From a virus (Duplodnaviria > Heunggongvirae > Uroviricota > Caudoviricetes), in the IMG/VR virus record IMGVR_UViG_3300017992_000017, positions 33,418 through 97,417 of that record: 64,000 nucleotides of DNA; one strand, given 5' to 3'. Every line of letters starts with the position of its first letter. Position 1 is the first letter of the stretch. The translations under genes and the position numbers were made by a program. Shown here piece after piece: positions 11,497 through 31,133 of this stretch. Under the pieces are notes generated by a model. It worked only from the letters and a program-made list of their open reading frames with translations. It was not told the origin of the DNA and did not search any database.

Positions 11497-11837
11497 AGTT
11501 TCTTTACTGCAAAGCCTGCTACGACATCTTCCGGTTGTGGGAGGAAGAAAGAACCTGCAAGTGTGGCAAGACCAAGGGACGATACCTTGATCTCTTGGCC
11601 GCTGAATACGTAGGGGATTTCGCCGTTCCGCTTGGTGTGGACAACTTCAGCTTCGTACGAGCGGTCAGGAGACAACCGGAGAAAGGTCGCGGCGAGCAGT
11701 TTGAGGCGTTCGTCATACCAGAGCGATGTCCGACGTTTAAGAGAAAAGGTACTCCGGGAGAGGGTTGGGACGGTGGTGTAAAGGGTAGCACACCGGCTGT
11801 AACTGGAGGTGCGGGTTCAATTCCCGTCCGTCCGTGA
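11493..11837 (+). CDS. hypothetical protein with a CxxC...CxC zinc-ribbon-like N-terminus
   Basis: CKACYD...CKCGK. GTGA overlap with the upstream gene. Confidence 0.45.
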   Translation: MKFLYCKACYDIFRLWEEERTCKCGKTKGRYLDLLAAEYVGDFAVPLGVDNFSFVRAVRRQPEKGRGEQFEAFVIPERCPTFKRKGTPGEGWDGGVKGSTPAVTGGAGSIPVRP

Positions 11838-12075: not shown

Positions 12076-14207
12076 GTTTGTTATCGCTAGAAGGCACGGA
12101 CATCTTCAGCTACGCGGATATCTCCCTCGATCTCCGGGATCGTGGTCTTGTTCTTCTGGAGGGTGAGAACGGTGCTGGGAAATCCTCCATCTTCCGGATT
12201 CTGGCCTGGACGCTCTATGGTGACCAGCTCCGAAACACCCGAGCCGATGCCGTGGTCCGCAAAGACATGAACCACAAACCGATCACCGGCAAGACCTCCG
12301 GCATCGTACGGTTCGAGCGTAACGGCCAGGAGATCCGCGTTGAACGGTATCGCAAGCACAAGGAGTTTGCCAGCAAGCTTCTCCTCTTCGTAGACGACCG
12401 GGAAATTACCGGAGCCTCCAACAACGAGACGCAGGGACGCATCGTTGATCTCCTGGGTGGGATCGACAGTGACACTTTCTGCTCGGCCGTGTTGTTTCCG
12501 CAATCGGCCAAGGGATTCTGCAGCAAGTCCGACGCCGAGATGAAGGCCGTCTTCGATCGTCTCCTCCAGCTCGATCGCTTCTTCCAGGCCAGAGAGCTCG
12601 CCAAGTCCCGGTCTCGACAGTTCCAGGACCTCACCACGGGACTGCAGGCAACCACCGTATCTCTCGAACAGCAACTTACAGACGGACAGACCAGGATCGA
12701 ACAGCTGCAGTCTGAGGTAGCCAACTTCGATCTCAAGAAACTCCAAGACATCCAGAGCTGCAAGGAGGAGGTCGCCAAGCTAGAAGCCGCAAAGCCAGCT
12801 CCAGTCGATCCAAACATCATCGCCGAGCTGACTACCCTCCAAGGCATGATCACCGAGGCAGCCAACGTAGAGGAGCAATACAACCAGGTCACGACCACTC
12901 AGACCTCCCTCGTCCGTCAACAGGCTGGCCTCGAATCCCAGATCCAGAGTCTCCAATCACAGATTCCGGGAGAGACGCCAGCACCTCCCGTAGCTGAAAA
13001 GACCATAGAAGAGGTTGCCGATTTGCTCTCCGTACTGGGTCGGGAGGAGGCAAGACTGGAGATCGGTCTCACCTCGGCCGAACGTGAGGTGGTTTCGCTC
13101 GACAACAAGATCGCGCAACGGGACTCCATGGACGAGTGTGGTGCGTGTGGACAGGAGCTTACTGACAAGGCCAAGTCCAAGCTATTCGGCGATCTAGACA
13201 GCCAGCGAACCCAGAAGATGGCCGAGATCGAATCGACCACGCAGAAACGCCGGGAAGTGACCCAGCAGCTGGAAGGACTCCGCGACGTCCAGGCTCGAGC
13301 TCTGGCGTACCGGTCGTGGGAGGAGATGACCCAGGATCGACGCCGGATCCAGGACCAGCTCGTTCAGCTACAGGATCAGCTGACAAAAATATCCCTCCAG
13401 TTAGGGGGTGCGGAGGAAGAGGCCGTCAGACTGCGAGATTTGGCTTCTAAGGGACGCGAGGCCAAAGACAGGTACTCGTCCCTCCAGGCTCTGAAAACGC
13501 AGCAGGAGGCCGCACAGGAGCTCTGGGAGACTAAACTAGCATCCATACTATCCCAGCGAAACGAGGCTGAGTCTAGGATCAATCCGTTTGGGGACCTTCT
13601 GCTCCAAGAAACAGGCCGCATGGGGGGTGTGCGCGACAGTCTCGGGTGGTACGGGATGCTGCAGAAACGCACAGACCTGGAGACCGGGATCTTCGACTGG
13701 TGGGTGGACGGGTTTGGCCAGCAGGGAGTGAAGACGTTCCTGATCGAGCGAGCCATCCCCTTCATCAACTCCCGTCTGCAGGAGTATCTGGCGGTACTCT
13801 CAGGGGGGAAGGCTACGGCCACTTTCTCTGCGACGTCCCGACTGGCTGACGGATCGGAGAGGGACAAGCTATCGGTCAACGTGGATTACCGTGGGGGGGA
13901 CGACGAGTACGCCGGGTTGTCGGGGGGAGAAATGGCTCGCGTCGACATTGCTATGATGCTCGCTCTCGGGGATTTGGCGTCGGCGCGGAGCAACATCAAC
14001 TTCGGGGTGCGGTTGCTCGACGAACCGTTCGATGGTCTAGATTCGATCGGTAAAGAGTTGGTAGTCCAGGTGTTACGCGAAAATATCCTCCCGAAATGTG
14101 GCACGATACTTGTCATGACACACGATGATAGTCTCAAGCAATTGTTTCCCCGTATAGTAGGGGTTGACAAACAAGACGGTGTGAGTAGAATTGAAATAGT
14201 AGGGTAA
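12072..14207 (+). CDS. sbcC: SbcC/Rad50-type SMC ATPase
   Basis: Walker A GENGAGKSS, long Gln/Glu-rich coiled coil with a central CGACGQ zinc hook, signature LSGGE, Walker B LLDEPFDGLD. ATGA overlap and GGGAGGA SD. Confidence 0.85.
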   Translation: MSLLSLEGTDIFSYADISLDLRDRGLVLLEGENGAGKSSIFRILAWTLYGDQLRNTRADAVVRKDMNHKPITGKTSGIVRFERNGQEIRVERYRKHKEFASKLLLFVDDREITGASNNETQGRIVDLLGGIDSDTFCSAVLFPQSAKGFCSKSDAEMKAVFDRLLQLDRFFQARELAKSRSRQFQDLTTGLQATTVSLEQQLTDGQTRIEQLQSEVANFDLKKLQDIQSCKEEVAKLEAAKPAPVDPNIIAELTTLQGMITEAANVEEQYNQVTTTQTSLVRQQAGLESQIQSLQSQIPGETPAPPVAEKTIEEVADLLSVLGREEARLEIGLTSAEREVVSLDNKIAQRDSMDECGACGQELTDKAKSKLFGDLDSQRTQKMAEIESTTQKRREVTQQLEGLRDVQARALAYRSWEEMTQDRRRIQDQLVQLQDQLTKISLQLGGAEEEAVRLRDLASKGREAKDRYSSLQALKTQQEAAQELWETKLASILSQRNEAESRINPFGDLLLQETGRMGGVRDSLGWYGMLQKRTDLETGIFDWWVDGFGQQGVKTFLIERAIPFINSRLQEYLAVLSGGKATATFSATSRLADGSERDKLSVNVDYRGGDDEYAGLSGGEMARVDIAMMLALGDLASARSNINFGVRLLDEPFDGLDSIGKELVVQVLRENILPKCGTILVMTHDDSLKQLFPRIVGVDKQDGVSRIEIVG
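14164..14191 (+). promoter_or_regulatory. sigma70-like promoter inside the sbcC 3' end
   Basis: TTGACA (14164-14169), 16-nt spacer, TAGAAT (14186-14191). Followed by AAACTATACC at 14223-14232 and the gene at 14255. Confidence 0.4.
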
Positions 14208-14759: not shown

Positions 14760-15068
14760 TTGTTTCCGGTGAGTCACCCGGATCCGTCGCGCGATCGTTG
14801 GCAACTAGAAGACCTTGAATCGTACTTGCGCGATCGGCTTCGGGTGTTGTTTGGTGGGGATGAGGACCACCTGGTCTTTGCGCCAGGTGGTCCTCGGCGT
14901 CTCCTGTCGTTGGAGGAGCAAGATGCGTTACCTCGAGAGTCGCCGGATGAGCTGTGTGTGCTATGTTGGAACCGATACGCCGATCACTTTGTCGACGTGG
15001 ACTACTTGAACCATGAAGGACGTCCGTTTCTGCGGACCCTGTGTGACGGGAGAGTGGTGAAGATATGA
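14760..15068 (+). CDS. hypothetical protein
   Basis: 102-codon ORF. Start uncertain (TTG 14760 or GTG 14769). Confidence 0.4.
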   Translation: MFPVSHPDPSRDRWQLEDLESYLRDRLRVLFGGDEDHLVFAPGGPRRLLSLEEQDALPRESPDELCVLCWNRYADHFVDVDYLNHEGRPFLRTLCDGRVVKI

Positions 15069-15289
15069 AGAGACTGAAGTTCTGCATCGGCGCGACCCTG
15101 TTCTGGTTGGGTCTGCCTTTTGCCGCTCTCTCCATCTTGATTATGTTTGCTCTCGGGGTGGTTGGTCTTCTGGGGATACTGGCCGTCATACTCCTCATGT
15201 CGTTTCCGTGTCTGGTGGGTGGTTGGTTGGCGACGGATGGTTGGTTGGAGAGGATCGAAGCCATGTCTGGTTTGGAGGACAAGGAGTGA
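15065..15289 (+). CDS. small membrane protein (two hydrophobic spans)
   Basis: FCIGATLFWLGLPFAALSILIMFALGVVGLLGILAVILLM. ATGA overlap. Confidence 0.5.
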   Translation: MKRLKFCIGATLFWLGLPFAALSILIMFALGVVGLLGILAVILLMSFPCLVGGWLATDGWLERIEAMSGLEDKE

Positions 15290-15954
15290 AAACTGTCGCG
15301 TTCATGCCAATCAAGCTGAACAACCAGCGTCTCTCTGGGAAGAACACCCGGATGCTGAGAGACAAGCCGCTCTGCCAGTGGGCGCTGAACGAGTTGTTGG
15401 AGTTAAAGAACGACGAAGCGGTGGAGGAGGTCTACGTCTACTGCTCCGACCCTAAGATCGAGGACTATCTCCCGAACGGCGTGGAGCTGCTGTTGCGTAA
15501 CCCGTCGCTCGATCATCCACATGTCCAGGGTAATGACATCTACCGGTCGTTCATTGCCGAGGTACCTGCCGATCTGTACATGCTCCATCATGCGACCAGT
15601 CCCTTCGTCAAGGTTGAGACACTGTACCGGTGTCTTACTGCTGTGTCCTCTGGGAAGCACGACTCGGCCCTGACGGTCAAGGAGATGCACGGCCGGTTCT
15701 GGAGAAACAATGCTCCCGTGTGGCATGACCTGGAGACGGTGGGTCGGACGCAGGACATGACTCCCGTGTACTTCGAGACGGAGGCATGCTACGTCTTTCC
15801 TCCGTATCTTCTGGAGATTTACGGAAGACGGGTAGGGTTTAATCCATACCTGTGTCCCGTCGATGCGAAAGAAGCCATCGATATCGATACCCGGGACGAT
15901 TTTGAGCTGGCTCAGTGCGTGGCATGGCCGAGATATGCGTCAACTAACGGCTGA
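15286..15954 (+). CDS. acylneuraminate/nonulosonate cytidylyltransferase family protein
   Basis: GTG start in a GTGA overlap after an AAGGAG SD. VAFMPIKLNNQRLSGKNTRML.DKPL matches the N-terminal CMP-sugar synthetase motif. Confidence 0.6.
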   Translation: MKTVAFMPIKLNNQRLSGKNTRMLRDKPLCQWALNELLELKNDEAVEEVYVYCSDPKIEDYLPNGVELLLRNPSLDHPHVQGNDIYRSFIAEVPADLYMLHHATSPFVKVETLYRCLTAVSSGKHDSALTVKEMHGRFWRNNAPVWHDLETVGRTQDMTPVYFETEACYVFPPYLLEIYGRRVGFNPYLCPVDAKEAIDIDTRDDFELAQCVAWPRYASTNG

Positions 15955-16669
15955 ATACGATCGACTCCGAGACTCCGTGATCTCCAGTACGAGCACGGAT
16001 GCACAGCTGGAGTGTTTGCACAACGCACACGCAGGGGAGACGGCATACCTGGTGGCTTGCGGACCGTCGACAGGACAGTACCGGGAGGAGTTTCTGCGGC
16101 AGCGACTGGCCAACGAACTGGTCATTGCCGTGAAGCAGGCCATGGATCTCGTACCGGGGATCGCTGACTATCACCTGATCAACGCCGTCAACCGGAAAGA
16201 GTACGACTACACACATCCCCGGCCGATCGTGATGTTCGTCTGCGAGATCGAACAGATGGTCCGGTGTCCGATGCTGCACGACGTTTACACCCCGAGACCA
16301 GGACGAGGGGACAAACACATCTACGTTAGCCAGAGCAAGGATTTCGACAGTTGGACGTTGGACAAGATCATTCGACGTCCTCTGGGTCCGACGATCGTGT
16401 TCACGCTGGGTATGTTCCTGGCCGTGCATCTTGGTGTGTCTCGGATCATCACGTTGGGTGTGGACATGGCGCCGGAGGACATGCGGCATTACTACCCGAG
16501 CAATCTGAATGAGGGACAGATCCTGCATTCGGAGTGGGAGGCCGGGTTGGTTCGGGATGCGCATGAGGACTGGGACCGGTGGTTGCGTAGCCGGGGTGTG
16601 AGGTGGTTACGTGCCGAGTCGGATGAACCCAACGGTTTTCCTTCAATCGAGGAGGTGAGTTTGTTGTGA
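15935..16669 (+). CDS. DUF115 / MptE-like (motility-accessory-factor-like) putative nonulosonate transferase
   Basis: GETAYLVACGPSTGQ...VIAVKQAMDLVPGIADYHL resembles the DUF115 core (a.IvgnGPSL...i.a..a...L...gi.PD). Confidence 0.4.
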   Translation: MRQLTAEYDRLRDSVISSTSTDAQLECLHNAHAGETAYLVACGPSTGQYREEFLRQRLANELVIAVKQAMDLVPGIADYHLINAVNRKEYDYTHPRPIVMFVCEIEQMVRCPMLHDVYTPRPGRGDKHIYVSQSKDFDSWTLDKIIRRPLGPTIVFTLGMFLAVHLGVSRIITLGVDMAPEDMRHYYPSNLNEGQILHSEWEAGLVRDAHEDWDRWLRSRGVRWLRAESDEPNGFPSIEEVSLL

Positions 16670-17031
16670 CAGCTAGGACAGTGGAGCAAACAACTAAGGA
16701 TTGGGGAACGGTGCGTACGCTATTCAATCGTGGCGATACGCGGGTGACTCTCATTGATGGACCACGAAAAGACCGGAACGAGGTTTGCTCGGAGCACGTT
16801 CACGCATATACGCATAACCTCTTCTTTGTGCTTCAGGGGTCGTTGGAGGTTCATTGCTGCAACCGAGGTGTGTGGAGCAACAACCTCCTCCAGCCTGGGG
16901 AGAGCTTTCTCGTACCGGCCGGGATGTGGCATTATTTCCGGATCCTAGAAGACCCTACCCAAGCCATCGAGATCTATTGGTCCGACAGCATGGAAAAGGA
17001 CATCGAACGGAGAAACGATGGCTCGAATTGA
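16666..17031 (+). CDS. cupin-fold protein (sugar-nucleotide isomerase/epimerase-like)
   Basis: HVHAYTHNLFFVLQGSLEV and GESFLVPAGMWHYF give a two-motif cupin signature. Confidence 0.5.
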   Translation: MTARTVEQTTKDWGTVRTLFNRGDTRVTLIDGPRKDRNEVCSEHVHAYTHNLFFVLQGSLEVHCCNRGVWSNNLLQPGESFLVPAGMWHYFRILEDPTQAIEIYWSDSMEKDIERRNDGSN

Positions 17032-17527
17032 CCGGAAACAGATCGTTGCGTGGCTCCGACGTGCGTACCAGGTGGGGATGGATCAGTCGGATGACATGGA
17101 CACGAAGGTCGGTGCGATTCTGGTCGTGCCCTGGATGCCGGAGGACTGCGTTGAGGGTGCGAACCGGATACCTACAGGTCTCTCCCGTAGACCGTCGAGA
17201 AAGAAGCGACCCGACAAGTACCGGTATCTCGTCCACGCGGAGGAAGACTCGATCCTCCAAGCAGCCAAGCTCGGGAGGTCCACCAAGGGACTGACCATGA
17301 TCTGTCCGTGGGCGGCTTGTGCTCGGTGTAGTCGGATGATCGTGCAGGCCGGGATCAAACGGGTGATCAACCACAAGTCTTCCATGGACGCTACGCCAGA
17401 TCGATGGAAGGCCGACATCGAGCTGGGACATTCCATGCTGCGTGAGGCGAATGTTGATCTGATCACGTACGACGGTTGGGTTGAGGACGTGAAATCGAAA
17501 TTCGACGGAAAGGTTTGGTATCCATGA
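17018..17527 (+). CDS. deoxycytidylate (dCMP) deaminase
   Basis: Zinc motifs HAEEDSI and PWAACARCSRMIVQAGIKRV (HAE...PCxxC). Confidence 0.8.
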   Translation: MARIDRKQIVAWLRRAYQVGMDQSDDMDTKVGAILVVPWMPEDCVEGANRIPTGLSRRPSRKKRPDKYRYLVHAEEDSILQAAKLGRSTKGLTMICPWAACARCSRMIVQAGIKRVINHKSSMDATPDRWKADIELGHSMLREANVDLITYDGWVEDVKSKFDGKVWYP

Positions 17528-18126
17528 AGACCGTCGCAATCATCGGCAACTCACATCATCTCCTGGGATCACGTCTCGGGGACAAGATCAACTCGCATGA
17601 CGTGGTGATCCGACTGAACAGCTACAAACTGTATCCCTACCAGGCCGACGTAGGGACCAAGACGGACACCATCGTCCTTGTCCAAAATGCAGACAACAAC
17701 ATGCTGGCTCGCAAGGGGTTGTTGCCGGAGGAGCTCCAGACTTGCAACGAGCTCTGGTTCTCTCGTCCTCTTGGAGATCGTGGGGACATGGACAACGACA
17801 TGCGGGTCATCTTGAAAGCGATCGGCCGGTTCAAGGTGAAGGACTGTCGGTTTCCGGACTCGAAGGGTGTGAAGGAGCTCCGTGCCAAGCTGAACTCACC
17901 GTACTATCCGTCGACAGGGATAGTCACGATCTTCATGGTACTGGAAACGTACCCGGATGCTGACATTCGGATCGCTGGTTTCGGGGATCCACAGGAAACA
18001 GCGTTCAAAGAAGGACATTACTATCCGAACGTGCATGGTTTCAAGTGGATCCATGACGGTCTGGGTGAGCGTGCCTTGATCGATCACCTGGTAGACGAGG
18101 GGAAGATCTCGTGGCTGACGTCGTAG
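17524..18126 (+). CDS. GT29-like sialyltransferase
   Basis: Sialyl motif L-like VAIIGNSHHLLGSRLGDKINSHDVVIRLN. Motif S-like YYPSTGIVTIFMVLETYPDADIRIAGFG. Downstream H...E. ATGA overlap. Confidence 0.55.
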   Translation: MKTVAIIGNSHHLLGSRLGDKINSHDVVIRLNSYKLYPYQADVGTKTDTIVLVQNADNNMLARKGLLPEELQTCNELWFSRPLGDRGDMDNDMRVILKAIGRFKVKDCRFPDSKGVKELRAKLNSPYYPSTGIVTIFMVLETYPDADIRIAGFGDPQETAFKEGHYYPNVHGFKWIHDGLGERALIDHLVDEGKISWLTS

Positions 18127-19091
18127 CAATCATCCCGGCTCGTGGTGGGTCGGAGGGTGTGTGGAAGAAGAACCTGCAGAAGGTCGGTGGCGTGCCGTTG
18201 ATTGCGCGTGCCGTCCGTGCTGCCAAGGATGCTGTGTTGGTTGATAAGGTCGTGGTCTCGTCGGACGACAGCGAGATCCTGGACGTTGCGATAGGTGAGG
18301 GAGCGTCCATCTACTACCAGACTCCGGAGGTGAGTGGTCCGGACGATCTGCAGGAGAAAGCGATTCTTGAGTGGCTGGACGTGACAGGACGCACGGAAGG
18401 AACGCTGGCGATGCTCCAGTGTACGGCGCCGTTCATGACCGGTACGGACATAGATGGTGTGATTGTGGAGATGGACGTAAAGGAGGCTGACTGCTGTTTC
18501 GCTGCATGTCGGTTCCAGCATTTCATTTGGAGACACGACGGATCGAGGCAGGCATACGGGATCAATCACGACTCTTGGACGCGTCAGCAGAGACAGAACC
18601 GACACACGGAGTATTTAGAAGCTGGTAGCGTCTACGCTATGGATATCGCTGGGTTTTTGAAGCACAAACACCGGTTTTTCGGGAGGATCGCTATACACCA
18701 GGTGAATCCATCTCGCGTTTTTGAGATCGACACCTACGAGGAGCTGTTGTTAGCCAACCGGATCGCTGGGCTTCCCGAGCCGTTGTCTGGTCAGCGGGTG
18801 TTCGTGGACATCGACGAGACGATCTGCGAGACGCCATCGACCCGGGACTATACGAAGTCGACACCGAACTTGGACGCTATTGCCGAGATCAACCGGATGC
18901 GTGACCGGGGAGTTGTGGTCACCTATTGGACGGCGCGTGGTTCGGGGTGGCCTTCGGCGAGGGTTGAGGAGCTGACCAGGAGACAGATGAAGGAGTGGGG
19001 TGCCGAGTATGACTACCTGCTGTTCGGCAAACCTGTGTACGACCGGCTCTACGACGACAAGGCAGACTATCAGATACCGGGAGTCAACTGA
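18111..19091 (+). CDS. neuA: N-acylneuraminate cytidylyltransferase fused to a HAD-type phosphatase domain
   Basis: N-terminus AIIPARGGSEGVWKKNLQKVGGVPLI (NeuA/KdsB motif). C-terminus VFVDIDETICET (DxDxT), TYWTARG, GKP...DDKA. Confidence 0.75.
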   Translation: MADVVAIIPARGGSEGVWKKNLQKVGGVPLIARAVRAAKDAVLVDKVVVSSDDSEILDVAIGEGASIYYQTPEVSGPDDLQEKAILEWLDVTGRTEGTLAMLQCTAPFMTGTDIDGVIVEMDVKEADCCFAACRFQHFIWRHDGSRQAYGINHDSWTRQQRQNRHTEYLEAGSVYAMDIAGFLKHKHRFFGRIAIHQVNPSRVFEIDTYEELLLANRIAGLPEPLSGQRVFVDIDETICETPSTRDYTKSTPNLDAIAEINRMRDRGVVVTYWTARGSGWPSARVEELTRRQMKEWGAEYDYLLFGKPVYDRLYDDKADYQIPGVN

Positions 19092-20147
19092 ATGACGGAC
19101 GTGAGGTTGGAAACGGGTGACTGTCGTGAAGTGATGTCGGCGTACGAGGAGAGCACGTTCACAGCGTGCGTGACCGATCCTCCCTACGAGCTGGGTTTCA
19201 TGGGTAAGGACTGGGACCAGGCCGGGGTTTCCTACGATTCCGAGACGTGGCGTGCCGTGTTACGTGTCTTGAAGCCGGGTGCGTTTCTCCTGGCGTTTGG
19301 GGGGACCAGGACGTACCACCGGATGACCTGCGCGATTGAAGATGCCGGGTTTGAGGTTCGGGACTGCATGATGTGGCTGTACGGGAATGGGTTTCCTAAG
19401 TCGCATAACATCTCGAAAGCGATCTCCAAATCAGGAGACAGAACAGCGTCTGACATGTGGGACGGCTACGGGACTGCTCTGAAACCCGCCTGGGAGCCGG
19501 TTGTTGTGGCCATGAAATCCTTGTCTGGGACGTTTGCGAAGAACGCTTTAGAGCAGAGGGTGGCTGGATTGAATGTTGATGGCGGGCGAGTGGAGTATGA
19601 GACCGGCGGCAGTCTCGCCAGCAATCCCTCCTTACGTCGCTCGGTCAAGGGTGGCAACGGCGGCCATATCATCGCCACAGAATCCGAAAGCCGCGAGATG
19701 GTTTCTCACGCCAAAGGCCGCTGGCCTGCGAACCTCCTGCTCGATGAAGAGTCGGGGGCGATGCTGGACAAGCAGAGCGGCGAGCGTCCGGGGTGTAGGT
19801 CGCGCAGCAACGCCAAGCCGGAGAGCAAGTTCCGACCCGGTCAAGGCGAGTACATGCCCCAAGGGCCAATCTACCCGGACACGGGCGGCGCGTCTCGGTT
19901 CTTCTACTGCGCCAAATCCAGCAAGAAAGAACGTGGCGAAGGAAACGACCACCCAACCGTCAAACCACTGAGACTGATGAAACATCTACTGACCCTCGTG
20001 ACTTACCCAGAGCAGAACCTGGTTCTCGACCCGTTCTGCGGATCTGGGACGACCCTACTAGCGTGCCGGGAGATGGGGTTGTCGTGCGTGGGTATCGACT
20101 CGGACCCACATGCTGTTGAAATCGCGGAAGCACGGGGAGTCAACTGA
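19092..20147 (+). CDS. DNA methyltransferase, beta-class N6A/N4C (DPPY)
   Basis: CVTDPPYE (motif IV) near the N-terminus and DPFCGSGTT (motif I) near the C-terminus. Confidence 0.85.
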   Translation: MTDVRLETGDCREVMSAYEESTFTACVTDPPYELGFMGKDWDQAGVSYDSETWRAVLRVLKPGAFLLAFGGTRTYHRMTCAIEDAGFEVRDCMMWLYGNGFPKSHNISKAISKSGDRTASDMWDGYGTALKPAWEPVVVAMKSLSGTFAKNALEQRVAGLNVDGGRVEYETGGSLASNPSLRRSVKGGNGGHIIATESESREMVSHAKGRWPANLLLDEESGAMLDKQSGERPGCRSRSNAKPESKFRPGQGEYMPQGPIYPDTGGASRFFYCAKSSKKERGEGNDHPTVKPLRLMKHLLTLVTYPEQNLVLDPFCGSGTTLLACREMGLSCVGIDSDPHAVEIAEARGVN

Positions 20148-21442: not shown

Positions 21443-22363
21443 ATGAAAGCCAAGAACGTCAAGTCAGTTATCCGTAGCAAGATCAACCATTTCCTGAAGC
21501 ATGTTCGGGACGAGGATGTCCGGAAGGTTCTGGAGAAGAACATCGTTGTTACTGGTGGAGCGATCGCGTCGCTGCTTCTCGGCGAAGAGGTGAACGATTT
21601 CGACATATATCTCCGGTCCAAGGAAGCTGCGTTGACGGTGGCTCAGCACTATGCAGCCGAGTTCGCCAATAATTCGCCACCCAGGCACCGCAATTCAAGC
21701 CAGAAATGCAACGTCGTCGTGGAGGAGCTGCCGGATCGCATACGCATCAAGGTCCAGTCAGCGGGCATTGCATCAGAGCAAGGCGACGAAGACTACGAGT
21801 ACTTCGAGACAACCAACCCCGAAGACGCCGACGCGCACGAGTATGTCAGCAAGGTACTGTCTATCGCACAAGATGCTGAGCCGGATAACGAGAAACCGAA
21901 ATACAGGCCGGTCTTCCGCACGGCCAACGCAATCACACTGAGCGACAAGGTCCAGATCGTGACCCGGTTCTTTGGCGAACCGGACGAGATCCACGAGAAC
22001 TACGACTTTGTACACGTCACCAACTACTGGACCAGCTGGGATAACAAATTGGTGCTTCGGCCGGATGCGATAGAGGCTCTCCTTGCTCGCGAGCTCCGGT
22101 ACGTCGGCAGTAAGTACCCCCTCTGTTCCGTGATCCGCACACGTAAGTTCATCCAGCGGGGGTGGGCCGTTACAGCTGGTCAGTACCTCAAGATGATTAT
22201 GCAGCTCCAGGAATTAGACCTGCATGACATACGTGTGCTGGAGGAGCAACTGACCGGTGTGGATGCAGCGTATTTTGATGAAGTCCTGGCTGCTCTGAAG
22301 AAGAAAGACGCGAAAAGGGTTGACGCGGCGTACTTGGTTGAGCTGATCGACAGGATCTTTTGA
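21443..22363 (+). CDS. hypothetical protein with a possible Pol-beta-superfamily nucleotidyltransferase motif
   Basis: VVTGGAIASLLLGEEVNDFDIYL resembles the GG...D.D head of CCA-adding/poly(A) polymerase-type NTases. Motif-level evidence only. Confidence 0.3.
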   Translation: MKAKNVKSVIRSKINHFLKHVRDEDVRKVLEKNIVVTGGAIASLLLGEEVNDFDIYLRSKEAALTVAQHYAAEFANNSPPRHRNSSQKCNVVVEELPDRIRIKVQSAGIASEQGDEDYEYFETTNPEDADAHEYVSKVLSIAQDAEPDNEKPKYRPVFRTANAITLSDKVQIVTRFFGEPDEIHENYDFVHVTNYWTSWDNKLVLRPDAIEALLARELRYVGSKYPLCSVIRTRKFIQRGWAVTAGQYLKMIMQLQELDLHDIRVLEEQLTGVDAAYFDEVLAALKKKDAKRVDAAYLVELIDRIF

Positions 22364-22884
22364 TGCACGACACACTCTACAACCTCGAACTGGTGAGAGA
22401 AAAGCTAGACCTATGTGATCCTGACGTTTTTACCGAGGTGGTGCACAAGGAGACAAAGGCGCTGACCACGTATGCTCGTGATCTTGTCGGGGACGATCTT
22501 GCGCAGGACGTGGTACAAGAGGTTTGGTTGCATGCGTGGATGAAGCGACACGAGTACGATGGTAATCCCAAACTAATTCGTTGGTGGTTGTGTAGGTTTG
22601 CTTACTACTACGGACTGAAGATCCAGAGGGAGGAGGCACGACAGAGACACTACCATCTTTTCCCAGCCGAACCGGATCCGAAAGAACCTGTGGAAGATGT
22701 CGTGCTTTGTAGTCTCGTTGCGGAGTTTGTCCAGGGTCTTCCACCGAAACAGGAGCAAGCTGTACGTTTATGGTCCTTGGGATACACGTACAAAGAAATC
22801 GCTGGCCAGATGAACATCTCAGTCTCAGCTGCCACGTCGAATGTCAGTCTTGCACGTAAGAAGCTACACGAATTACTCAACTAA
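22363..22884 (+). CDS. sigma-70 family (ECF-like) sigma factor
   Basis: Region 2-like AQDVVQEVWLHAW. Region 4 HTH LPPKQEQAVRLWSLGYTYKEIAGQMNISVSAATSNVSLARKKL. Confidence 0.7.
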   Translation: MHDTLYNLELVREKLDLCDPDVFTEVVHKETKALTTYARDLVGDDLAQDVVQEVWLHAWMKRHEYDGNPKLIRWWLCRFAYYYGLKIQREEARQRHYHLFPAEPDPKEPVEDVVLCSLVAEFVQGLPPKQEQAVRLWSLGYTYKEIAGQMNISVSAATSNVSLARKKLHELLN

Positions 22885-22896: not shown

Positions 22897-23457
22897 ATGA
22901 CGTTCGGACGTGACGACCCCGTTGACCTGACATCCCATGAAGTGTTTGAAGCCGTGGTTCGGAAGTACAAGAACTGGATGTACCGGCTGGCTGGCCAGTA
23001 TGTGGAGCAACCTGCCGACCAGGATGACGTTGTGCAGTATGCGTGGTTGATCGTGTGGCAGGGACGGCACAAGTATACCGGTCCTGTGGGTAAGCTCCCG
23101 TTCTGGTTGAAGAAAGCAATACGCTACGCCGCACTGAATATCTACCGACAGCACCAAAGATTCCCGATGACAGGCTGTGATTTCTCGCGGGAGATCGATC
23201 CGTGTGCAGCAGAACCGGCAGTAGGTAGGGAGAAGGCCGAGCAAACGGAGGATCAGCACCAGCAAATCGACCGTGCTATGGCAACATTTCGGTTTCTCCC
23301 CAAACAACAACGGAGTGTCGTCAGGTTACGGATGGAAGGTCTACGGAATGAGGATATCGCCAAGAAGATGCGCCTCTCCAAGTCGTGCGTAGGCTCCCAT
23401 CTTCATCGTGCCAGGAAGAAGATCCGGCGTGAGATCGAGGAATCTCCAACTCTCTAA
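22897..23457 (+). CDS. sigma-70 family (ECF-like) sigma factor, second copy
   Basis: DQDDVVQYAWLIVWQ. Region 4 LPKQQRSVVRLRMEGLRNEDIAKKMRLSKSCVGSHLHRARKKI. Confidence 0.7.
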   Translation: MTFGRDDPVDLTSHEVFEAVVRKYKNWMYRLAGQYVEQPADQDDVVQYAWLIVWQGRHKYTGPVGKLPFWLKKAIRYAALNIYRQHQRFPMTGCDFSREIDPCAAEPAVGREKAEQTEDQHQQIDRAMATFRFLPKQQRSVVRLRMEGLRNEDIAKKMRLSKSCVGSHLHRARKKIRREIEESPTL

Positions 23458-23485: not shown

Positions 23486-24463
23486 ATGGCTGACAAGAAC
23501 ACTTCCTACACAAGCGCTGACGTCCTACCGATCAAGGTAGTCCTCGATACCCAGACCGTGGACCATATCCGTCGTTACCGCAGGATTCCACCGATCCACG
23601 CTCAGGTCATCCCGACGAATCGCTGCAACAGAAACTGTCCAATGTGCAGCTGTAGCGAACGGACCAAGAACCACGAGATGGATCTGTTCGACGTCGAGAC
23701 CATAGCCAAGGATCTCCGTCGACTGGGGTGTCGAGCCGTGACGTTGACCGGGGGTGGTGAGCCGTTAGTGCATCCGCAGATCGTCGACATCATCCGGCTC
23801 TTTCACGTCCTGGATATCGAGATCGGGATGACCACCAACGGGATGCTGTTGCACGAGCTCCCCGAGGAGGTAGTCGAGCTGCTGACCTGGTGTCGGATCT
23901 CGAACGACGACTCCAGACACATGTCCCCTCTGTACATGGCCAGTCTCGACAAGGTGTTTGTGGGAAGCTCCGTAGGCTGGGGTTTTTCGCACGTGGTCTC
24001 CAAGACCCCTAACTTCGAGGAGATTGCCAGGGTTGTACGGTACGCCAACGAGTGGAAGATCACCCACGTTCGCCTCATCGCTGACCTGTTCGAGCCAAAG
24101 GCCGTCGATCTTACGAAGGTGCGGCAGTATCTCTATGAGGAAGGGATCGACGACTCCCGGGTCATCTACCAGAACCGCCAACAACCAGTCCGGGGAGGTC
24201 CTTGCTACATCGGGTACTTGAAACCCCTGATTTCTGCCGACTGCAAGGTATATGCGTGCTGTGGGGTGCAGTACGCGTTGGATCCCCCTACCCGTGACCT
24301 ACCTCCGGAACTCTGTATCGGGGACGCGTTGGACCTGGGTGCGCTCTATGACAGCAGCGACGTACAGCTCAACGGGGAGATATGCAAGACCTGTTACTAC
24401 GACAATTACAACAACCTTCTCGGGTCGCTCCTGAAAGACACCACGCACGAGGAGTTTGTATGA
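23486..24463 (+). CDS. radical SAM enzyme
   Basis: IPTNRCNRNCPMCS (CxxxCxxC), GGGEPLV glycine motif, extra C-terminal Cys cluster (CKVYACCG, CKTC). Confidence 0.8.
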   Translation: MADKNTSYTSADVLPIKVVLDTQTVDHIRRYRRIPPIHAQVIPTNRCNRNCPMCSCSERTKNHEMDLFDVETIAKDLRRLGCRAVTLTGGGEPLVHPQIVDIIRLFHVLDIEIGMTTNGMLLHELPEEVVELLTWCRISNDDSRHMSPLYMASLDKVFVGSSVGWGFSHVVSKTPNFEEIARVVRYANEWKITHVRLIADLFEPKAVDLTKVRQYLYEEGIDDSRVIYQNRQQPVRGGPCYIGYLKPLISADCKVYACCGVQYALDPPTRDLPPELCIGDALDLGALYDSSDVQLNGEICKTCYYDNYNNLLGSLLKDTTHEEFV

Positions 24464-25143
24464 CCTTCGCTATCATCTCCGGTGCTCGATCTGGCACGCA
24501 CATGCTCCGACTGGCGTTGTCGCAGCATCCGGACATCCACGTCTCTCACGAGTTGTTGAATCCTGATCGTTTAGGACACCGGTTTGGCGAGGAGACAGCG
24601 GAGACGATCATCCGGGAGTGGCAGCAAGAGCACTACCGGGAGGTCAAACAGCTAGGGTCTTTGTTGCATCGGGATCTTTACAACCGATCGGAGGAGATAC
24701 CTGGCGACCCCTGGAGAGATGTTCGTCGGAGTCACGCCAAGTTTATCAGCCTCTACCGGTACAACCTCCTCCGCAAGGTTCTCTCCGGGAGGACTGCGTT
24801 TGTCCACAAGAACTGGCAGTGCACGTCTCCCAGGACCAAGGAGTTGCCACCTATCACTCTGGATCCGGACCATCTTGAATCACATTGTCGCAAGGAGTGG
24901 AGGTCTTTCGGTCTGGTGGACGCGAGACTGCCACGTCACTTCGTCATCTCTTATGAAGATCTGGTGAGTGACTGGACGTATCACACGATGGCCATGCAGG
25001 AGTATTTGGGGGTGACGCCGGTTCAGCTCCACCCCCGAACTCACAAACAAGAAACACGCAGCCTCCGGGAAGCCATTGCGAACTACGACGAGATAGCTGA
25101 CCGGGTTTGTGAAATGGGTTGCGAAGACTGGTTAGAGGAGTAG
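24460..25143 (+). CDS. sulfotransferase (Stf0-like)
   Basis: ATGA overlap. FAIISGARSGTHML (5'-PSB-like loop) and ISLYRYNLLRKVLS (3'-PB-like R...S). Confidence 0.5.
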   Translation: MTFAIISGARSGTHMLRLALSQHPDIHVSHELLNPDRLGHRFGEETAETIIREWQQEHYREVKQLGSLLHRDLYNRSEEIPGDPWRDVRRSHAKFISLYRYNLLRKVLSGRTAFVHKNWQCTSPRTKELPPITLDPDHLESHCRKEWRSFGLVDARLPRHFVISYEDLVSDWTYHTMAMQEYLGVTPVQLHPRTHKQETRSLREAIANYDEIADRVCEMGCEDWLEE

Positions 25144-25145: not shown

Positions 25146-25892
25146 ATGCCAACTGTTAGCGTAATCTTGACGTCCCACAACCACGGACCGTTTCTGCGTC
25201 AAGCCATCGAGAGCGTGCTGGCTCAGACGTACACGGACTTCGAGCTATTGATTCTGGATGATGCGTCTACGGATGGGTCAGCAGACATTGCACGGGAGTA
25301 TGTCGGATCCAACGCCTTTCTCCAGGACTACCAAGAAAAGGCATCCAGTCTCGGGGTTGTCCTGAACCGTAGCATTCGTCTGGCTCGTGGAGACTACTGG
25401 GTCTGGGCACCTTCAGATGACGTGCTCAAACCGGATCTCCTAGAGAAGAAGATGGCCACGGCACAGGAGCATCCCGGCGCCGTCCTCTACTCAGACTGGG
25501 AGTACATCAATGAGCGGGGGGACGTGACCGGGACCAAACGTCTACCGGAATGGACCGCCGAGGATATCGCAAGGATGGTGTGGGAGAAGTCCATGCTCGG
25601 GTTCACCGGCATCTGGATACCCATGTCCGTCTTCGATGAGGTGGGGAACTGGCCGACGCACATGCTCTTCTCCGAGGACTTCTCCTGGTTCGTTCGAGCT
25701 ACGATCCACGGAATACCTTTCATCAACTGTCCTGAGGTCCTCTTCCAGAAACGGCTCAACCCTCTGCAGACAGCCAGTAAGGTCGGGACGAAACGCATCC
25801 TTGAGCTGGTACCCGCAATCCATAGTGAGCTCCGTTGGTACCAACATCTCTACCAACAACACCATCCTGACTACGAGGTGCCGAGTCAATGA
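25146..25892 (+). CDS. GT2 family glycosyltransferase
   Basis: VSVILTSHNHGPFLRQAIESVLAQTYTDFELLILDDASTDGS. Confidence 0.8.
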   Translation: MPTVSVILTSHNHGPFLRQAIESVLAQTYTDFELLILDDASTDGSADIAREYVGSNAFLQDYQEKASSLGVVLNRSIRLARGDYWVWAPSDDVLKPDLLEKKMATAQEHPGAVLYSDWEYINERGDVTGTKRLPEWTAEDIARMVWEKSMLGFTGIWIPMSVFDEVGNWPTHMLFSEDFSWFVRATIHGIPFINCPEVLFQKRLNPLQTASKVGTKRILELVPAIHSELRWYQHLYQQHHPDYEVPSQ

Positions 25893-26728
25893 GGGTTGTC
25901 TTCTTCTGGGGAACGTCTCCGTTGTCGTGGATGAGGTACGCCACGATCGCCAGCTTCCGGAAACTCAATCTGGACTGGGAGATCGAGCTGTATCTCTACC
26001 ACCACCAGCACGTCAAGAAGTACTGGACCGACTCCCCGGTGCAGGATTTTTCCGAGTACCGAGGAGCCGACTACTTTCCTTTGCTCACGGACCTTGGTGT
26101 TCGGGTCATTCCGTGGGAGTTGCCGGAGGAGCTGCAGGACAAGAAGCACGTCATCGGTCCTTCCCACGCCAGTAACTTCTTCAAGTGGAGCTGGCTGTCC
26201 GAGAACGTGGGTGTCTACTGCGACCTGGACATCCTCTGGACGTCCCCGCTTACGGACTGGCTTGACTGGGTGGCCACGTACGATGCTGCTCTTGCTTACA
26301 CGCCGGAGTACTTCTCGATCGGCCTTCTCTGGTCGGGACAGCAGCCGAACCCCGTCTACAAGGATATCCTGGCCGAGAGTTACCGCACCTTCACGCACAC
26401 CAAGTACCAGAGTGCCGGGGTCGTGGCACTCTATCGGTTACTGCAGAAGTTCGACCCAGCGTACCGTGAGCACCCGTGGGATAAGGATCTGCTCGCGAGG
26501 TACGACAACGCATACCTCTTCGACATGGACTGGGTCTATCCTTGGCGATTCAACCAGATGGAGGAGGTTTTCAACAAGAAGCACGAGGTCATCCCACCGA
26601 TGTGCAAGGGGATCCACTGGTACGCCGGGTCTCCAATCGCACAGAAGTACAACAACCTGATCACCGAGGACACGTTGGATCAGTACGACAATACGTTCAC
26701 CCATTTCGCGAGACGGGTCCTTGGTTGA
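25889..26728 (+). CDS. DXD glycosyltransferase (GT32 / Gly_transf_sug-like)
   Basis: FKWSWLSENVGVYCDLDILW. Paralog of the next gene. Confidence 0.45.
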   Translation: MRVVFFWGTSPLSWMRYATIASFRKLNLDWEIELYLYHHQHVKKYWTDSPVQDFSEYRGADYFPLLTDLGVRVIPWELPEELQDKKHVIGPSHASNFFKWSWLSENVGVYCDLDILWTSPLTDWLDWVATYDAALAYTPEYFSIGLLWSGQQPNPVYKDILAESYRTFTHTKYQSAGVVALYRLLQKFDPAYREHPWDKDLLARYDNAYLFDMDWVYPWRFNQMEEVFNKKHEVIPPMCKGIHWYAGSPIAQKYNNLITEDTLDQYDNTFTHFARRVLG

Positions 26729-28303: not shown

Positions 28304-28407
28304 TGTCCGAAGACGTCTACTACCTGACTCCGAAAGCCATCATGGTCGGGGTGCTCAGTGAATATATCCCGCATGAAGAACTTGTAAACGCAGAGGACGA
28401 GGAATGA
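28303..28407 (+). CDS. small ORF (34 aa), translationally coupled on both sides
   Basis: TAATG overlap with the GT2 stop and ATGA overlap with the neuB start. Translation MSEDVYYLTPKAIMVGVLSEYIPHEELVNAEDEE. Not on the ORF track (under 60 aa). Confidence 0.3.
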   Translation: MSEDVYYLTPKAIMVGVLSEYIPHEELVNAEDEE

Positions 28408-29279
28408 GCACCACGATCGTAGCTGAGATCGGGATCAATCACAACGGCTGTCTCGCATTCGCCAAAGAGATGATCGACGCAGCGTATGAGGCTGGTGCCG
28501 ACGTGGTGAAATTCCAGAAGCGTACCCTGCCTGCCGCCGTTCCCATCCACCAGCGACACGCACTCAAAGAGACGCCTTGGGGACAGATGACGTACCTCGA
28601 CTACCGAAACAAGCTGGAGTTCGGGTTCGAGGAGTACTGCACCCTCGATCGGTGGTGTGCCAGGTACCCGATCTCCTGGACTGCGTCGGTGTGGGATGCG
28701 GAGGCTGCCAAGTTCATCGCTCAGTTTGACGTGCCGTACCTCAAGATCCCCTCAGCTGCCATTACGGACGCTCGACTCCTAGATGTCGTACGAGCCACGG
28801 GTAAGCCGGTCGTGATGAGCACCGGCATGTCCACGCTGGAGGAGGTAGACGCTGCGATCAACGTGCTCATGGGTAGCCGGTACTGTGACGGAGACTCCTG
28901 CCGTCGTACGCGTCAGCTACCACCGGCTCAGCTCACGCTCCTGCATTGTGTGAGCACCTATCCGACAGCCATCCCAGACATCAACCTCCGGGTCATGGAC
29001 ACGCTACGAGCTCACACGGGACTCCCAGTAGGCTATTCAGGACACGAGGTAGGGATGGCTGTGAGTATTGCCGCTGTTGCTCGTGGTGCCTGCATGATCG
29101 AGAGACACTTCACCACGTCGCAGACCATGTGGGGTACGGATCAGCGAGCATCTATGGAGCCGGGGGATTTTGCTGCACTGGTCAACGGTATCCGATCGGT
29201 GGAGAGAGCACTCGGTGATGGGGTGAAGATTGTCTGCACCCGAGAACTTCCTATTCGACAGAAGCTACGGGGTGTGTGA
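28404..29279 (+). CDS. neuB: N-acetylneuraminate (nonulosonate) synthase, NeuB family
   Basis: IVAEIGINHNGCLAFAKEMIDAAYEAGADVVKFQ and downstream GYSGHE. At 291 aa it seems to lack a full C-terminal SAF domain. Confidence 0.85.
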   Translation: MSTTIVAEIGINHNGCLAFAKEMIDAAYEAGADVVKFQKRTLPAAVPIHQRHALKETPWGQMTYLDYRNKLEFGFEEYCTLDRWCARYPISWTASVWDAEAAKFIAQFDVPYLKIPSAAITDARLLDVVRATGKPVVMSTGMSTLEEVDAAINVLMGSRYCDGDSCRRTRQLPPAQLTLLHCVSTYPTAIPDINLRVMDTLRAHTGLPVGYSGHEVGMAVSIAAVARGACMIERHFTTSQTMWGTDQRASMEPGDFAALVNGIRSVERALGDGVKIVCTRELPIRQKLRGV

Positions 29280-29566
29280 TGACTACCGTTATGTCCAATA
29301 CGCTGTTCGACATCGTCTCCGAGATCCACGAGAGGCTACAGCAACAGATCGACGAGGGGGTTGTCAGATGGGAAGTGCTCGATACCGGAGGAGCAGCACC
29401 AGTACCGTGTGGGGTCGTCTTTCGGTACGAGTTTGTGTGGAACAATCACAAATACATATGGAAACATGCTTTCTCAGCCATCGAGCTCCTGTGTTGTCCG
29501 GATCCTATCTGGGTGGCTGAGTGGTTGGCCGATAGCTGGTTGCATGATGCTAAGGCTGTGAAATGA
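29276..29566 (+). CDS. hypothetical protein
   Basis: 96-codon ORF with 4-nt overlaps on both sides. Confidence 0.45.
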   Translation: MMTTVMSNTLFDIVSEIHERLQQQIDEGVVRWEVLDTGGAAPVPCGVVFRYEFVWNNHKYIWKHAFSAIELLCCPDPIWVAEWLADSWLHDAKAVK

Positions 29567-30423
29567 AGATTGTCCACTACAAGAAGACCCCCCTGGCTTA
29601 CGCTCCGGACTGGTTGTCGATGGCAATCAACAAGTACTCGGAGCATGAGTCTTCGGTCGTCACGTATCCGAAGCAGCTCCCCAAGCCAGCCAAGGATACG
29701 GTCGTCCATTTTCACAACCGGTTCGTCCCCTACGCCGGTCCCTGTCTGATCCAATACCATTCGGAGCCAGACGAACCGAACCTGATGCATCCGAAAGACC
29801 ACCCCACCGCTCCAGAACGTCGGTTGGTGGTGGCTCATTATCACCCCACGCTCCCCGAATACAAGGACATGCACCCGGTCCGTAACGTGGTGGACTTCAG
29901 ACGTCCTCAGTTTGCATACACCCCGGTTCGGAAGTTCAAGGTCGGTTACTCTCCCTCAGTCACGCGTCGGATCAGCAGGTGGTACGACAAGGGATATGAG
30001 AAGACAGTACAGATCCTCCAGCGTGTTGCCAAAGAAGTCCCGGAGATGGAGGTCGACATTATTGCCGGGGTTTGTCTGGATGAGTGTCTCCGGCGTAAAC
30101 GGGACTGCTCCGTGCTGATCGATGAGTGCGTGACCGGGAGCTATCATCGGAGTGGACTGGAAGGACTGGCGTTGGGGAAGGTGACGATAGCCGGTATGGA
30201 TGCTGCCGTGGTTGATGTGTTTCAGAACGTGTCGGGATCTGTTCTGATTCCGTTTACGATCTGTGGCATCGACTACCTGTGCAACAAGCTGATCCGTCTG
30301 TCCAAGGATATTGATGCGTTGAGAGAACGAGGACTGCACAACCGGCAGTGGTTTGAGAATTTCTGGGCGCCTGAACAGATCGTGGCCGAGTACGTGGAGC
30401 ACTACAAGGAGGTGCTGGCATGA
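29563..30423 (+). CDS. hypothetical protein, possible GT-B-fold glycosyltransferase
   Basis: The C-terminal half (VGYSPS...ILQRVAKEVPEMEVDIIAG...GSYHRSGLEGLALGKVTIAG) resembles the GT1/GT4 C-domain. Weak. Confidence 0.3.
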   Translation: MKIVHYKKTPLAYAPDWLSMAINKYSEHESSVVTYPKQLPKPAKDTVVHFHNRFVPYAGPCLIQYHSEPDEPNLMHPKDHPTAPERRLVVAHYHPTLPEYKDMHPVRNVVDFRRPQFAYTPVRKFKVGYSPSVTRRISRWYDKGYEKTVQILQRVAKEVPEMEVDIIAGVCLDECLRRKRDCSVLIDECVTGSYHRSGLEGLALGKVTIAGMDAAVVDVFQNVSGSVLIPFTICGIDYLCNKLIRLSKDIDALRERGLHNRQWFENFWAPEQIVAEYVEHYKEVLA

Positions 30424-31055: not shown

Positions 31056-31060
31056 CCGTG

Positions 31061-31133
31061 GCCACCGTAGCTCAATTGGCAGAGCAGCGGATTTGTAATT
31101 CGCCGGTTGTGGGTTCAAGTCCCTCCGGTGGCT
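31061..31133 (+). tRNA. tRNA-Thr (anticodon UGU)
   Basis: Hand-folded cloverleaf. Acceptor GCCACCG/CGGTGGC, D arm GCTC-AATTGGCA-GAGC, anticodon arm GCGGA-TTTGTAA-TTCGC, T arm GTGGG-TTCAAGT-CCCTC (one T:T mismatch), discriminator T. No encoded CCA. Confidence 0.85.

Follow-up and report, generated by a model that had tools for sequence, protein, structure and literature searches.

A gene of 200 codons, at positions 17524..18126 on the + strand of a 64,000-nucleotide stretch of DNA from a tailed phage (IMG/VR record IMGVR_UViG_3300017992_000017, positions 33,418 to 97,417; below, the window is this whole stretch), encodes what its sequence and its predicted structure identify as a real glycosyltransferase of family GT29, the family of the animal sialyltransferases. 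This supports an earlier call, made from the letters of the sequence alone (the sequence-only reading), which had also given start, stop and length of the gene correctly: it starts with ATG at 17524 and its stop codon ends at 18126. The product is of the type known from prokaryotes and phages, a bare core that runs from sialylmotif L to the C-terminus. In our judgement it is probably an active, soluble, cytoplasmic enzyme, which would transfer a nonulosonic acid from its cytidine monophosphate (CMP) conjugate to a glycan that the phage itself builds.

Consider first the family assignment. A hidden Markov model search with PF00777, the comparison that had been proposed from sequence, scores the open reading frame (ORF) at 79.9 bits with E = 2.8e-22, the gathering score being 23. 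At the level of sequence this is a match far beyond chance, and the precomputed annotation of the same ORF is likewise PF00777. A Pfam scan finds no other family at E <= 1, while PHROGs and NCBIfam have no family for the protein. When the PDB is searched by sequence (phmmer), the matches are to GT29 structures only, the best of them to pig ST3Gal-I (2wnb) with E = 1.8e-7 over residues 4-179.

The predicted structure leads to the same family. An AlphaFold2 model, built from an alignment of 44 homologues, has a predicted local distance difference test (pLDDT) value of 91.0 and a predicted template modelling score of 0.89, and when it is compared with the PDB by Foldseek the top 30 matches are all to mammalian GT29 enzymes (ST6GalNAc2, ST8SiaIII, ST3Gal-I and ST6Gal1), with E values from 7.8e-11 to 1.4e-5 and TMq values to the GT29 structures of 0.63-0.72. 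After these comes CstII of family GT42, at 7e-5 and weaker, and then no further significant match. Model and comparison together thus predict a sialyltransferase fold of GT-A variant 2, as had been anticipated, and not an unrelated one. Two neighbouring identities were considered for the ORF and rejected. There is no GT42 Pfam match at E <= 1, and CstII ranks below all GT29 structures; for Maf there is no PF01973 match, and MptE-like proteins from phages fit the model at only 2e-4 to 3e-3.

All four sialylmotifs, L, S, III and VS, are present in order and line up with those of pig ST3Gal-I. Motif L, which in the family binds the CMP part of the donor, covers residues 4-32 (17533..17619, +; VAIIGNSHHLLGSRLGDKINSHDVVIRLN) according to the alignment to 2wnb and the family alignment; it retains G8-N9, G19, I22, R30 and N32, while D23, conserved in the family, is N in the phage protein. 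Motif S, YYPSTG...IRIAGFG, covers residues 127-154 (17902..17985, +), with P129-S-T-G132 followed by G152-F153-G154. Both stretches, and their order, had been recognised correctly in the sequence-only reading. It had also noticed a later H...E pair, which proves to be H177 and E182 of motif VS, H177-D-G-L-G-E182 (18052..18069, +), an exact H-x4-E. What it had overlooked is motif III, H165-Y166-Y167-P168 (18016..18027, +), which appears in a column-by-column phmmer alignment. For motif III the published consensus is (H/y)-Y-(Y/W/F/h)-(D/E/q/g), and for motif VS it is H-x4-E with the His as catalytic base (PMC8433944). In the alignment to pig ST3Gal-I, H177 corresponds to the catalytic base His319 and E182 to Glu324. 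Similarly, H165 is aligned with the motif III His of the pig enzyme, which we take to be His302 from a chain-index offset of +45.

The pattern of conservation follows the motifs. Among the 44 compact homologues, which are about 25-30% identical and have a mean column identity of about 26%, five residues are invariant, i.e., G8, R30, N32, G44 (just downstream of motif L) and G132. Conserved to at least 90% are G19, I22, D23 (the N of the phage protein), G152, F153, Y166, H177 and E182.

The protein begins at motif L: its residue 2 corresponds to position 55 of the 272 positions of the PF00777 profile. It has neither a transmembrane segment nor a stem, the highest hydropathy over 19 residues being 1.01, and the earlier description of a compact enzyme free of membrane segments is borne out. 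In eukaryotic GT29 enzymes an invariant Cys in motif L and another in motif S form an essential disulfide (PMC8433944). The phage protein has V4 and Y143 in those columns, and its sole cysteines are C74 and C108.

This compact form is common. When 1.84 billion cluster representatives were scanned exhaustively with HMMER, 625 of them matched at E <= 1e-3, many being compact and without an anchor. Among the 150 best matches 64 are 165-225 residues long, and motif L lies within the first 12 residues in 96 of the 182 family members that were retrieved. The closest full-length relatives are compact proteins from metagenomes, phages or metagenome-assembled genomes (MAGs); one of the best belongs to a 50%-identity cluster (P0006; 35% identity, E = 2e-17) which includes a protein named by NCBI 'MAG: glycosyltransferase family 29 protein [Phenylobacterium sp.]'. 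Bacterial relatives occur in MAGs of Planctomycetota, Pirellulaceae and Fibrobacterota. A word-indexed protein search with the single GT29 sequence returned only the sequence itself, and a scan of IMG/VR with the single protein returned no relative. Metagenomic fusion proteins combine the compact GT29 domain with domains of GT2/GT92, GT4, sulfotransferase, methyltransferase or TPR type, and activities that are fused to GT29 there are those that lie on separate genes in the window.

The DNA itself is well attested. Identical DNA, with 100% of nucleotides shared along as much as 20.6 kb, occurs in four independently assembled datasets (one from ENA, two from JGI, one from SRA/Logan), from which follows that the locus is neither an assembly artefact nor a chimera. 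Since the four contigs show no polymorphism, they are uninformative on selection.

The window is that of a phage. Its DNA polymerase is about 30% identical to polymerases of SPO1-like Bacillus phages, whose records assign them to family A or call them DNA polymerase I, and PHROG matches in the replication module comprise, besides the polymerase, a sliding clamp, an SSB-like protein (phrog_1192), a UvsX-like recombinase and SbcCD-like nucleases. Further genes encode two sigma factors of sigma-70 or extracytoplasmic-function (ECF) type, Vsr, DNA methylases, a Thg1-like enzyme (a homologue of tRNA-His guanylyltransferase, 59417-60175, +) and a tyrosine integrase (60646-61650, +). The prokaryotic-virus setting assumed from the start thus holds, and an origin in a eukaryote or a giant virus is ruled out by the replication matches, the polymerase, the bacterial-type sigma factors and the overlapping gene junctions. 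No match at the DNA level was found when 10 kb were compared with deposited phages by megablast, and virion genes were not recognised in the window.

The function proposed above draws on the genes around GT29, which belong to a series of overlapping or abutting genes on the + strand from 15286 to 20147. Immediately downstream, and starting with GTG at 18111, so that it overlaps the 3' end of the GT29 gene by 16 nucleotides, lies a gene (18111..19091, +) for a NeuA/CMAS-like CMP-nonulosonic-acid synthetase (residues 1 to about 215; PF02348, E = 1.5e-16) with a small HAD-type phosphatase domain (about 228-318). Its PDB matches to NeuA and CMAS range from 5e-23 to 5e-16 (NeuA 9t4z, E = 5e-23; mouse CMAS 1qwj, E = 2e-18), against about 1e-4 for KdsB; its best NCBIfam model is PseF (TIGR03584) with 104 bits, below the cutoff. 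The C-terminal domain of about 100 residues has no Pfam match and is assigned from its motifs, from PHROGs on residues 228-318 (phrog_1238, E = 2e-16; phrog_415, E = 1.3e-8) and from one PDB match (9iqw, 2.9e-9). Its four HAD motifs, DIDET, WTARG, GKP and DD, stand in order and are kept in homologues from three phage lineages. At the upstream end of the series another, divergent cytidylyltransferase of 222 residues is encoded (15286..15954, +; PF02348, E = 6.9e-9; PseF 31 bits; KdsB 1gq9, E = 5e-3). The claim that GT29 lies beside CMP-sugar synthetases holds.

Between the first cytidylyltransferase and GT29 there are three genes. The first (15977..16669, +) encodes a protein of 230 residues that resembles MptE and Maf (DUF115; PF01973 at 20.9 bits, below the cutoff) and matches phrog_4603, 'alpha-2,3-sialyltransferase', at E = 2.9e-3. 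Its AlphaFold2 model (pLDDT 68) is matched by Foldseek to MptE HPPK at 6.5e-4, Maf 5mu5 at 9.4e-4 and ST8SiaIII at about 1e-2, and its alignment to the GT29 family by hhalign is weak (E = 5.7e-3, probability 6%). To judge from the model, it may be a candidate second nonulosonic-acid transferase from the same fold superfamily. The second gene encodes a small cupin of 121 residues (16666..17031, +; PF07883, E = 3.6e-10), possibly a sugar isomerase or epimerase. The third (17018..17527, +; 169 residues) is a dCMP/cytidine deaminase by PF00383 (E = 3.5e-13) and phrog_174 (E = 9e-20), and its TGA stop overlaps the GT29 start as ATGA, the coupling reported by the sequence-only reading. Nothing found in this analysis ties the function of the deaminase to GT29, despite this overlap.

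A second group of glycan genes starts about 5 kb past the GT29 block on the same strand. It consists of a sulfotransferase (24460-25143, +) and two GT2 genes (25146-25892 and 27533-28303, +), all three from Pfam, two adjacent paralogous genes for putative glycosyltransferases of DXD type (25889-26728 and 26721-27536, +; mutual E of about 1e-71, faint PF04488 matches at E = 0.01, otherwise without annotation), and a gene (28404..29279, +) for a NeuB-family nonulosonic acid synthase of 291 residues (PF03102, 261 bits), which lacks the C-terminal SAF domain. In NCBIfam the NeuB/LegI model TIGR03569 (NeuB_NnaB) scores 271 bits and PseI 180 bits, and in the PDB the synthase matches 6ncs and NmNeuB at about 1e-30. 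An attempt to name the sugar from PDB matches of the synthase was given up, the matches to NeuB, PseI and SpsE being too alike to discriminate. By hydropathy, no enzyme of this glycan island has a membrane-like segment. In addition, a 286-residue protein without a Pfam match is encoded downstream of NeuB (29563..30423, +; phmmer E = 1e-58 to positions 9745-10599 of contig L011, introduced below). Its homologue in the GT29 island of L011 comes with another GT29-like gene where GT8 would otherwise stand. It looks like a shared, unannotated component of GT29 cassettes.

The linkage of these genes recurs elsewhere. GT29 and NeuB, usually with a cytidylyltransferase and a HAD domain, occur together in three further lineages that are phages or resemble phages, and this recurrent module is what the present analysis adds. 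One lineage, here called B, comprises contigs L006, L010-L012 and L014-L016, of which several, up to 64.5 kb long, are classed as viral by IMG/VR, and which encode a family-B polymerase and PhoH. Their conserved gene order is dCTP deaminase/dUTPase, a 101-residue ORF, GT2, GT29 (175-177 residues), cytidylyltransferase, GT8, NeuB, methyltransferases, a HAD ORF and PhoH, where the standalone HAD ORF is homologous to the C-terminal domain of the window's synthetase (E of about 1e-24). A second case is an uncultured huge phage of 484 kb (LR756508.1, L005), whose record has no annotation and in which we find GDP-mannose 4,6-dehydratase, an epimerase, GT29, NeuB, a GIY-YIG homing endonuclease, three tandem GT29 genes and a HAD ORF; the four GT29 paralogues have 210, 227, 226 and 249 residues (L005 9186-14007). 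The standalone HAD ORFs of these two lineages are 96-116 residues long (L006 15092-15382; L005 14004-14354). The third case is a contig of 138 kb (ERZ27247346 k141_9560, L013) that has GT29 and MptE-like genes in two copies each, together with a short NeuB, a cytidylyltransferase and a NeuC-type epimerase. The same contig carries a peptide deformylase, IS200/TnpB and numerous small ORFs without annotation, and one of its proteins is named by NCBI as from a Phenylobacterium sp. MAG; it may be a large phage that was binned by mistake into a bacterial MAG. In all four settings the phage-associated NeuB is short, 279-299 residues, and has no SAF (antifreeze-like) domain (the window; L005 9853-10752; L006 12974-13822; L013 13409-14248), which may mean a different substrate.

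A pyrimidine deaminase is found near GT29 in two unrelated lineages, dCMP deaminase in the window and dCTP deaminase/dUTPase in lineage B (L006 7692-8273, with equivalents in L010-L012). This proximity may be coincidence or a link to the turnover of CTP and CMP.

From these genes a pathway may be proposed, in which we infer the activity of the enzyme, the identity of its donor and its role in capping. The donor would be made in three steps. The short NeuB-type synthase would join phosphoenolpyruvate to a hexose or hexosamine, or to its 6-phosphate; the HAD phosphatase domain would strip the 9-phosphate, if one is formed; and the NeuA/CMAS-like cytidylyltransferase next to GT29 would yield the CMP-nonulosonic acid. 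GT29 would then transfer the acidic sugar, which would probably serve as a cap, to a cytoplasmic glycan assembled by the GT2 and DXD-type glycosyltransferases and the sulfotransferase of the island. The transfer itself is expected to proceed as in the animal sialyltransferases, i.e., without metal, with inversion and in an SN2-like manner: motif L and part of motif S would hold the CMP-sugar, H165 of motif III would contact the phosphate and H177 of motif VS would take the proton from the acceptor hydroxyl.

Several observations weigh against this proposal and should be considered together. The fourth position of motif III is Pro, and not D, E, q or g, and the model is least confident in the motif III loop, with pLDDT values of 55-72 over residues 161-180. 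The synthase lacks the SAF domain, and it lies 10 kb downstream of GT29, the genes in between including a DNA methylase and sigma factors. No gene for the early steps, whether of NeuC, Leg or Pse type, was recognised in the window, and the donor sugar can therefore not be named. The absence of recognised virion genes leaves the window without virion proteins as acceptor candidates. Finally, the searchable literature holds no biochemical characterisation of a GT29 enzyme of prokaryote or phage type, and for this reason activity and donor rest on homology to characterised enzymes at only about 20-24% identity.

The acceptor is the least certain element of the proposal, and here two readings stand closest. 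There is a slight lean towards a glycan that is made in the cytoplasm and linked to protein, a virion protein or a surface protein of the host, as against a lipid-linked polysaccharide of the host, since the enzymes are soluble, since no lipid-carrier, flippase or export genes are seen in the window and since a Maf-like gene is a neighbour. Nearly as likely as acceptor is a host polysaccharide that is exported by the machinery of the host. The chemistry would then be the same, and acting on O-antigen, capsule or exopolysaccharide at the cytoplasmic face the enzyme would use an acidic sugar to cap or remodel the surface of the host, for instance to block superinfection or in lysogeny. Taken as a whole this alternative is a real possibility, to which we give less weight than to the proposal above. 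The integrase in the window accords with it, and so do the fusions of GT29 with GT4 and TPR domains, which resemble multi-module polysaccharide synthases. In addition, soluble glycosyltransferases are normal in O-polysaccharide pathways that depend on ABC transporters, with terminal residues as caps, and seroconversion by phage glycosyltransferases is well established. However, the island has no initiating polyprenyl-phosphate transferase, flippase, polymerase or ligase, the MptE/Maf-like neighbour points to direct glycosylation of protein, and lineage B and the huge phage, with their large genomes, look lytic.

The next question is that of the donor. By sequence comparison it leans towards an acid of the N-acetylneuraminic (Neu5Ac), legionaminic (Leg) or Kdn type rather than pseudaminic acid (Pse) or Kdo, because the synthase fits the NeuB/LegI model so much better than PseI, and because the NeuA match of the adjacent synthetase is far better than its KdsB match. 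That the enzyme instead uses another CMP-ulosonic donor, such as Kdo, pseudaminic acid or a novel derivative, we regard as unlikely. A variant of this alternative would pair the two cytidylyltransferases with the two proteins of sialyltransferase fold, giving two sets of donor and transferase. The presence of two of each speaks for the alternative. So does the weak KdsB/PseF likeness of the first cytidylyltransferase, as does the rank of PseF as best NCBIfam model, below its cutoff, for the second; furthermore, for the GT29-like proteins of plants no use of sialic acid is known (PMC5811610). Set against these points are the same two scores that carry the lean, that of the synthase and that of the adjacent synthetase.

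Two further readings would take the protein out of this chemistry altogether. A GT29 fold that is degenerate or has been repurposed, for instance to bind CMP-sugars or glycans with no transferase activity, is very improbable. The protein is very short, 200 residues as compared with about 270-290 in mammalian catalytic domains, about 55 N-terminal positions of the PF00777 profile are missing and motif III is atypical at its fourth position. Against this, all known catalytic and donor-binding residues are kept across a deep family whose columns are so variable on average, the same minimal architecture is shared by the 96 of 182 members mentioned above, and the linkage to genes of donor synthesis is consistent. 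Weaker still, and hardly credible, is a role in glycosylating phage DNA as a base hypermodification, which would account for the coupling to dCMP deaminase, for the N6/N4 DNA methylase gene (19092-20147, +) directly after the cytidylyltransferase and for the dCTP deaminase/dUTPase gene two genes upstream of GT29 in lineage B, and which has a precedent in the phage glycosyltransferases that hypermodify DNA, for which Pyle et al. (2024) is cited; but the scanned ORFs of the window include no thymidylate-synthase-like hydroxymethylase, 5-hmdU kinase or other base-activating enzyme, the GT29 and NeuB genes of the huge phage adjoin GDP-mannose dehydratase and not nucleotide genes, and the co-encoded GT2 enzymes, sulfotransferase and NeuB fit the assembly of a glycan. 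We also know of no DNA glycosyltransferase with a CMP-ulosonic donor or a GT29 fold.

How does a putative soluble, glycan-capping GT29 enzyme of a phage relate to what has been described? Petit et al. (2018, Sci Rep 8:2946; PMC5811610) reported 23 GT29 sequences from bacteria, of which alpha-proteobacteria contribute 19, with sialylmotifs but neither a transmembrane domain nor the disulfide cysteines, and of unknown function. By that published description the phage protein has all four sialylmotifs, the lack of a membrane segment and the lack of the L and S cysteines in common with them. It differs in being encoded by a phage and in lying within a module of NeuB, cytidylyltransferase and HAD genes; the paper mentions neither phages nor viruses. 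With the mammalian enzymes (2wnb; ST6GalNAc2 6apl; ST8SiaIII 5bo6; ST6Gal1 4js1) it shares the GT-A variant 2 fold at a TMq of about 0.7, the motifs L, S, III and VS and the catalytic His in H-x4-E, but at 20-24% identity, without the type-II anchor and stem, without about 55-100 residues before motif L and without the disulfide between L and S; it is presumably unglycosylated, and its predicted place is the bacterial cytoplasm instead of the Golgi lumen.

The same fold, at E = 1e-10 to 1e-7, is found in three BFVD/UniProt entries, A0A6J5NLG3 ('Glycosyl transferase family 29 [uncultured Caudovirales phage]'), A0A8S5UAA1 (Myoviridae sp., 170 residues) and A0A5B8IFN6 (Mimiviridae sp. ChoanoV1), to which the phage protein is only about 20-23% identical and which are neither discussed nor characterised in the searchable literature. 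Since such entries exist, GT29 in tailed phages is already on record by automatic annotation. The notion that the family is overwhelmingly eukaryotic or from giant viruses, and unusual in a phage, is accordingly overstated, as may be seen from these entries, from PMC5811610 and from the 625 cluster representatives. What has been achieved is the correct identification of a new member, with a well-described context, of a known but uncharacterised subgroup, and not of a new kind of enzyme. Full-text literature searches gave no paper that discusses GT29 in bacteriophages, and in the literature searched no function is assigned to any prokaryote-type GT29.

More distant relatives share parts of the picture. 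CstII and CstI of Campylobacter jejuni (GT42) have a related GT-A variant fold, use CMP-Neu5Ac with a His as base and are soluble or peripheral bacterial enzymes, but the structural match to CstII is at 7e-5, against 8e-11 for GT29, the identity is 12-14% and the sialylmotifs of the phage protein are of GT29 type. The Maf/MptE-like flagellin transferases (DUF115, PF01973) belong to the same fold superfamily, are cytoplasmic, use CMP-Pse or CMP-Leg and co-occur with NeuB and cytidylyltransferase genes. Vertebrate CMAS also has a C-terminal HAD-like domain, and its likeness to the downstream gene, a NeuA/CMAS-like synthetase with a HAD-type module, may serve as a lead; the phage module is much smaller, at about 100 residues, and keeps all catalytic motifs.

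Some other features of the window may be listed. The two sigma-70/ECF-type sigma factor genes are adjacent (22360-22884 and 22897-23457, +), and since they separate the GT29 block from the glycan genes further downstream, transcription of the region under phage control is suggested. A sigma-70-type promoter-like site, TTGACA-16-TAGAAT with 11/12 matches (14164-14191, +), lies upstream of the block that leads into the island; the region as a whole holds no more such sites than chance would give. A strongly hydrophobic small ORF of 74 residues (15065-15289, +; maximal hydropathy 2.98), the only membrane-like product near the island, directly precedes the first cytidylyltransferase gene, and immediately upstream of the sulfotransferase and the first GT2 gene is a radical-SAM enzyme of 325 residues and no specific subfamily (23486-24463, +). 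A 306-residue protein (21443-22363, +) has a precomputed Pfam assignment to PF26128 (Gad2, anti-Gabija family), a match that was not returned by our own scan with Pfam. The gene for the Vsr very-short-patch repair endonuclease comes directly after that for a DNA methyltransferase (phrog_116; both within 838-2498, +), a pair typical of C5-cytosine methylation systems. There are two tRNA predictions (11767-11835 and 31060-31134, +), of which the one just past the glycan island is a tRNA-Thr (TGT) and the other an unusual tRNA-like prediction whose anticodon has two bases, and there is a transposase-like gene on the - strand (37213-38097).

The GT29 family makes all animal sialoglycans, while its prokaryote-type members remain a functional gap. 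According to PMC4864186, mammalian GT29 enzymes are hard to produce in E. coli; a core of 200 residues, free of disulfides, glycans and anchor and accompanied by its own donor pathway, is attractive for expression there and would show how small a catalytic unit of GT29 can be. A module that recurs in unrelated phages points to an investment in making and transferring sialic-acid-like sugars, which bears on receptor masking, on the glycosylation of virions and on the cycling of glycans in the environment. A bacterial origin and lateral spread of GT29 have been proposed (PMC5811610), and carriage by phages is relevant to that proposal. As a bolder and quite tentative conjecture, which we think rather doubtful, tailed phages of several unrelated lineages may carry a self-contained cytoplasmic sialylation cassette of 'animal type', made up of a short NeuB, a HAD 9-phosphatase, a CMAS-like synthetase, a minimal GT29 and sometimes a Maf-like transferase, with which they would put sialic-acid-like sugars on their own virion proteins. 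If this were true, these would be the first phage particles coated with nonulosonic acids, and prokaryote-type GT29 would receive its first functional assignment; phages would then also be vehicles by which GT29 spreads among bacteria, and possibly towards eukaryotes.

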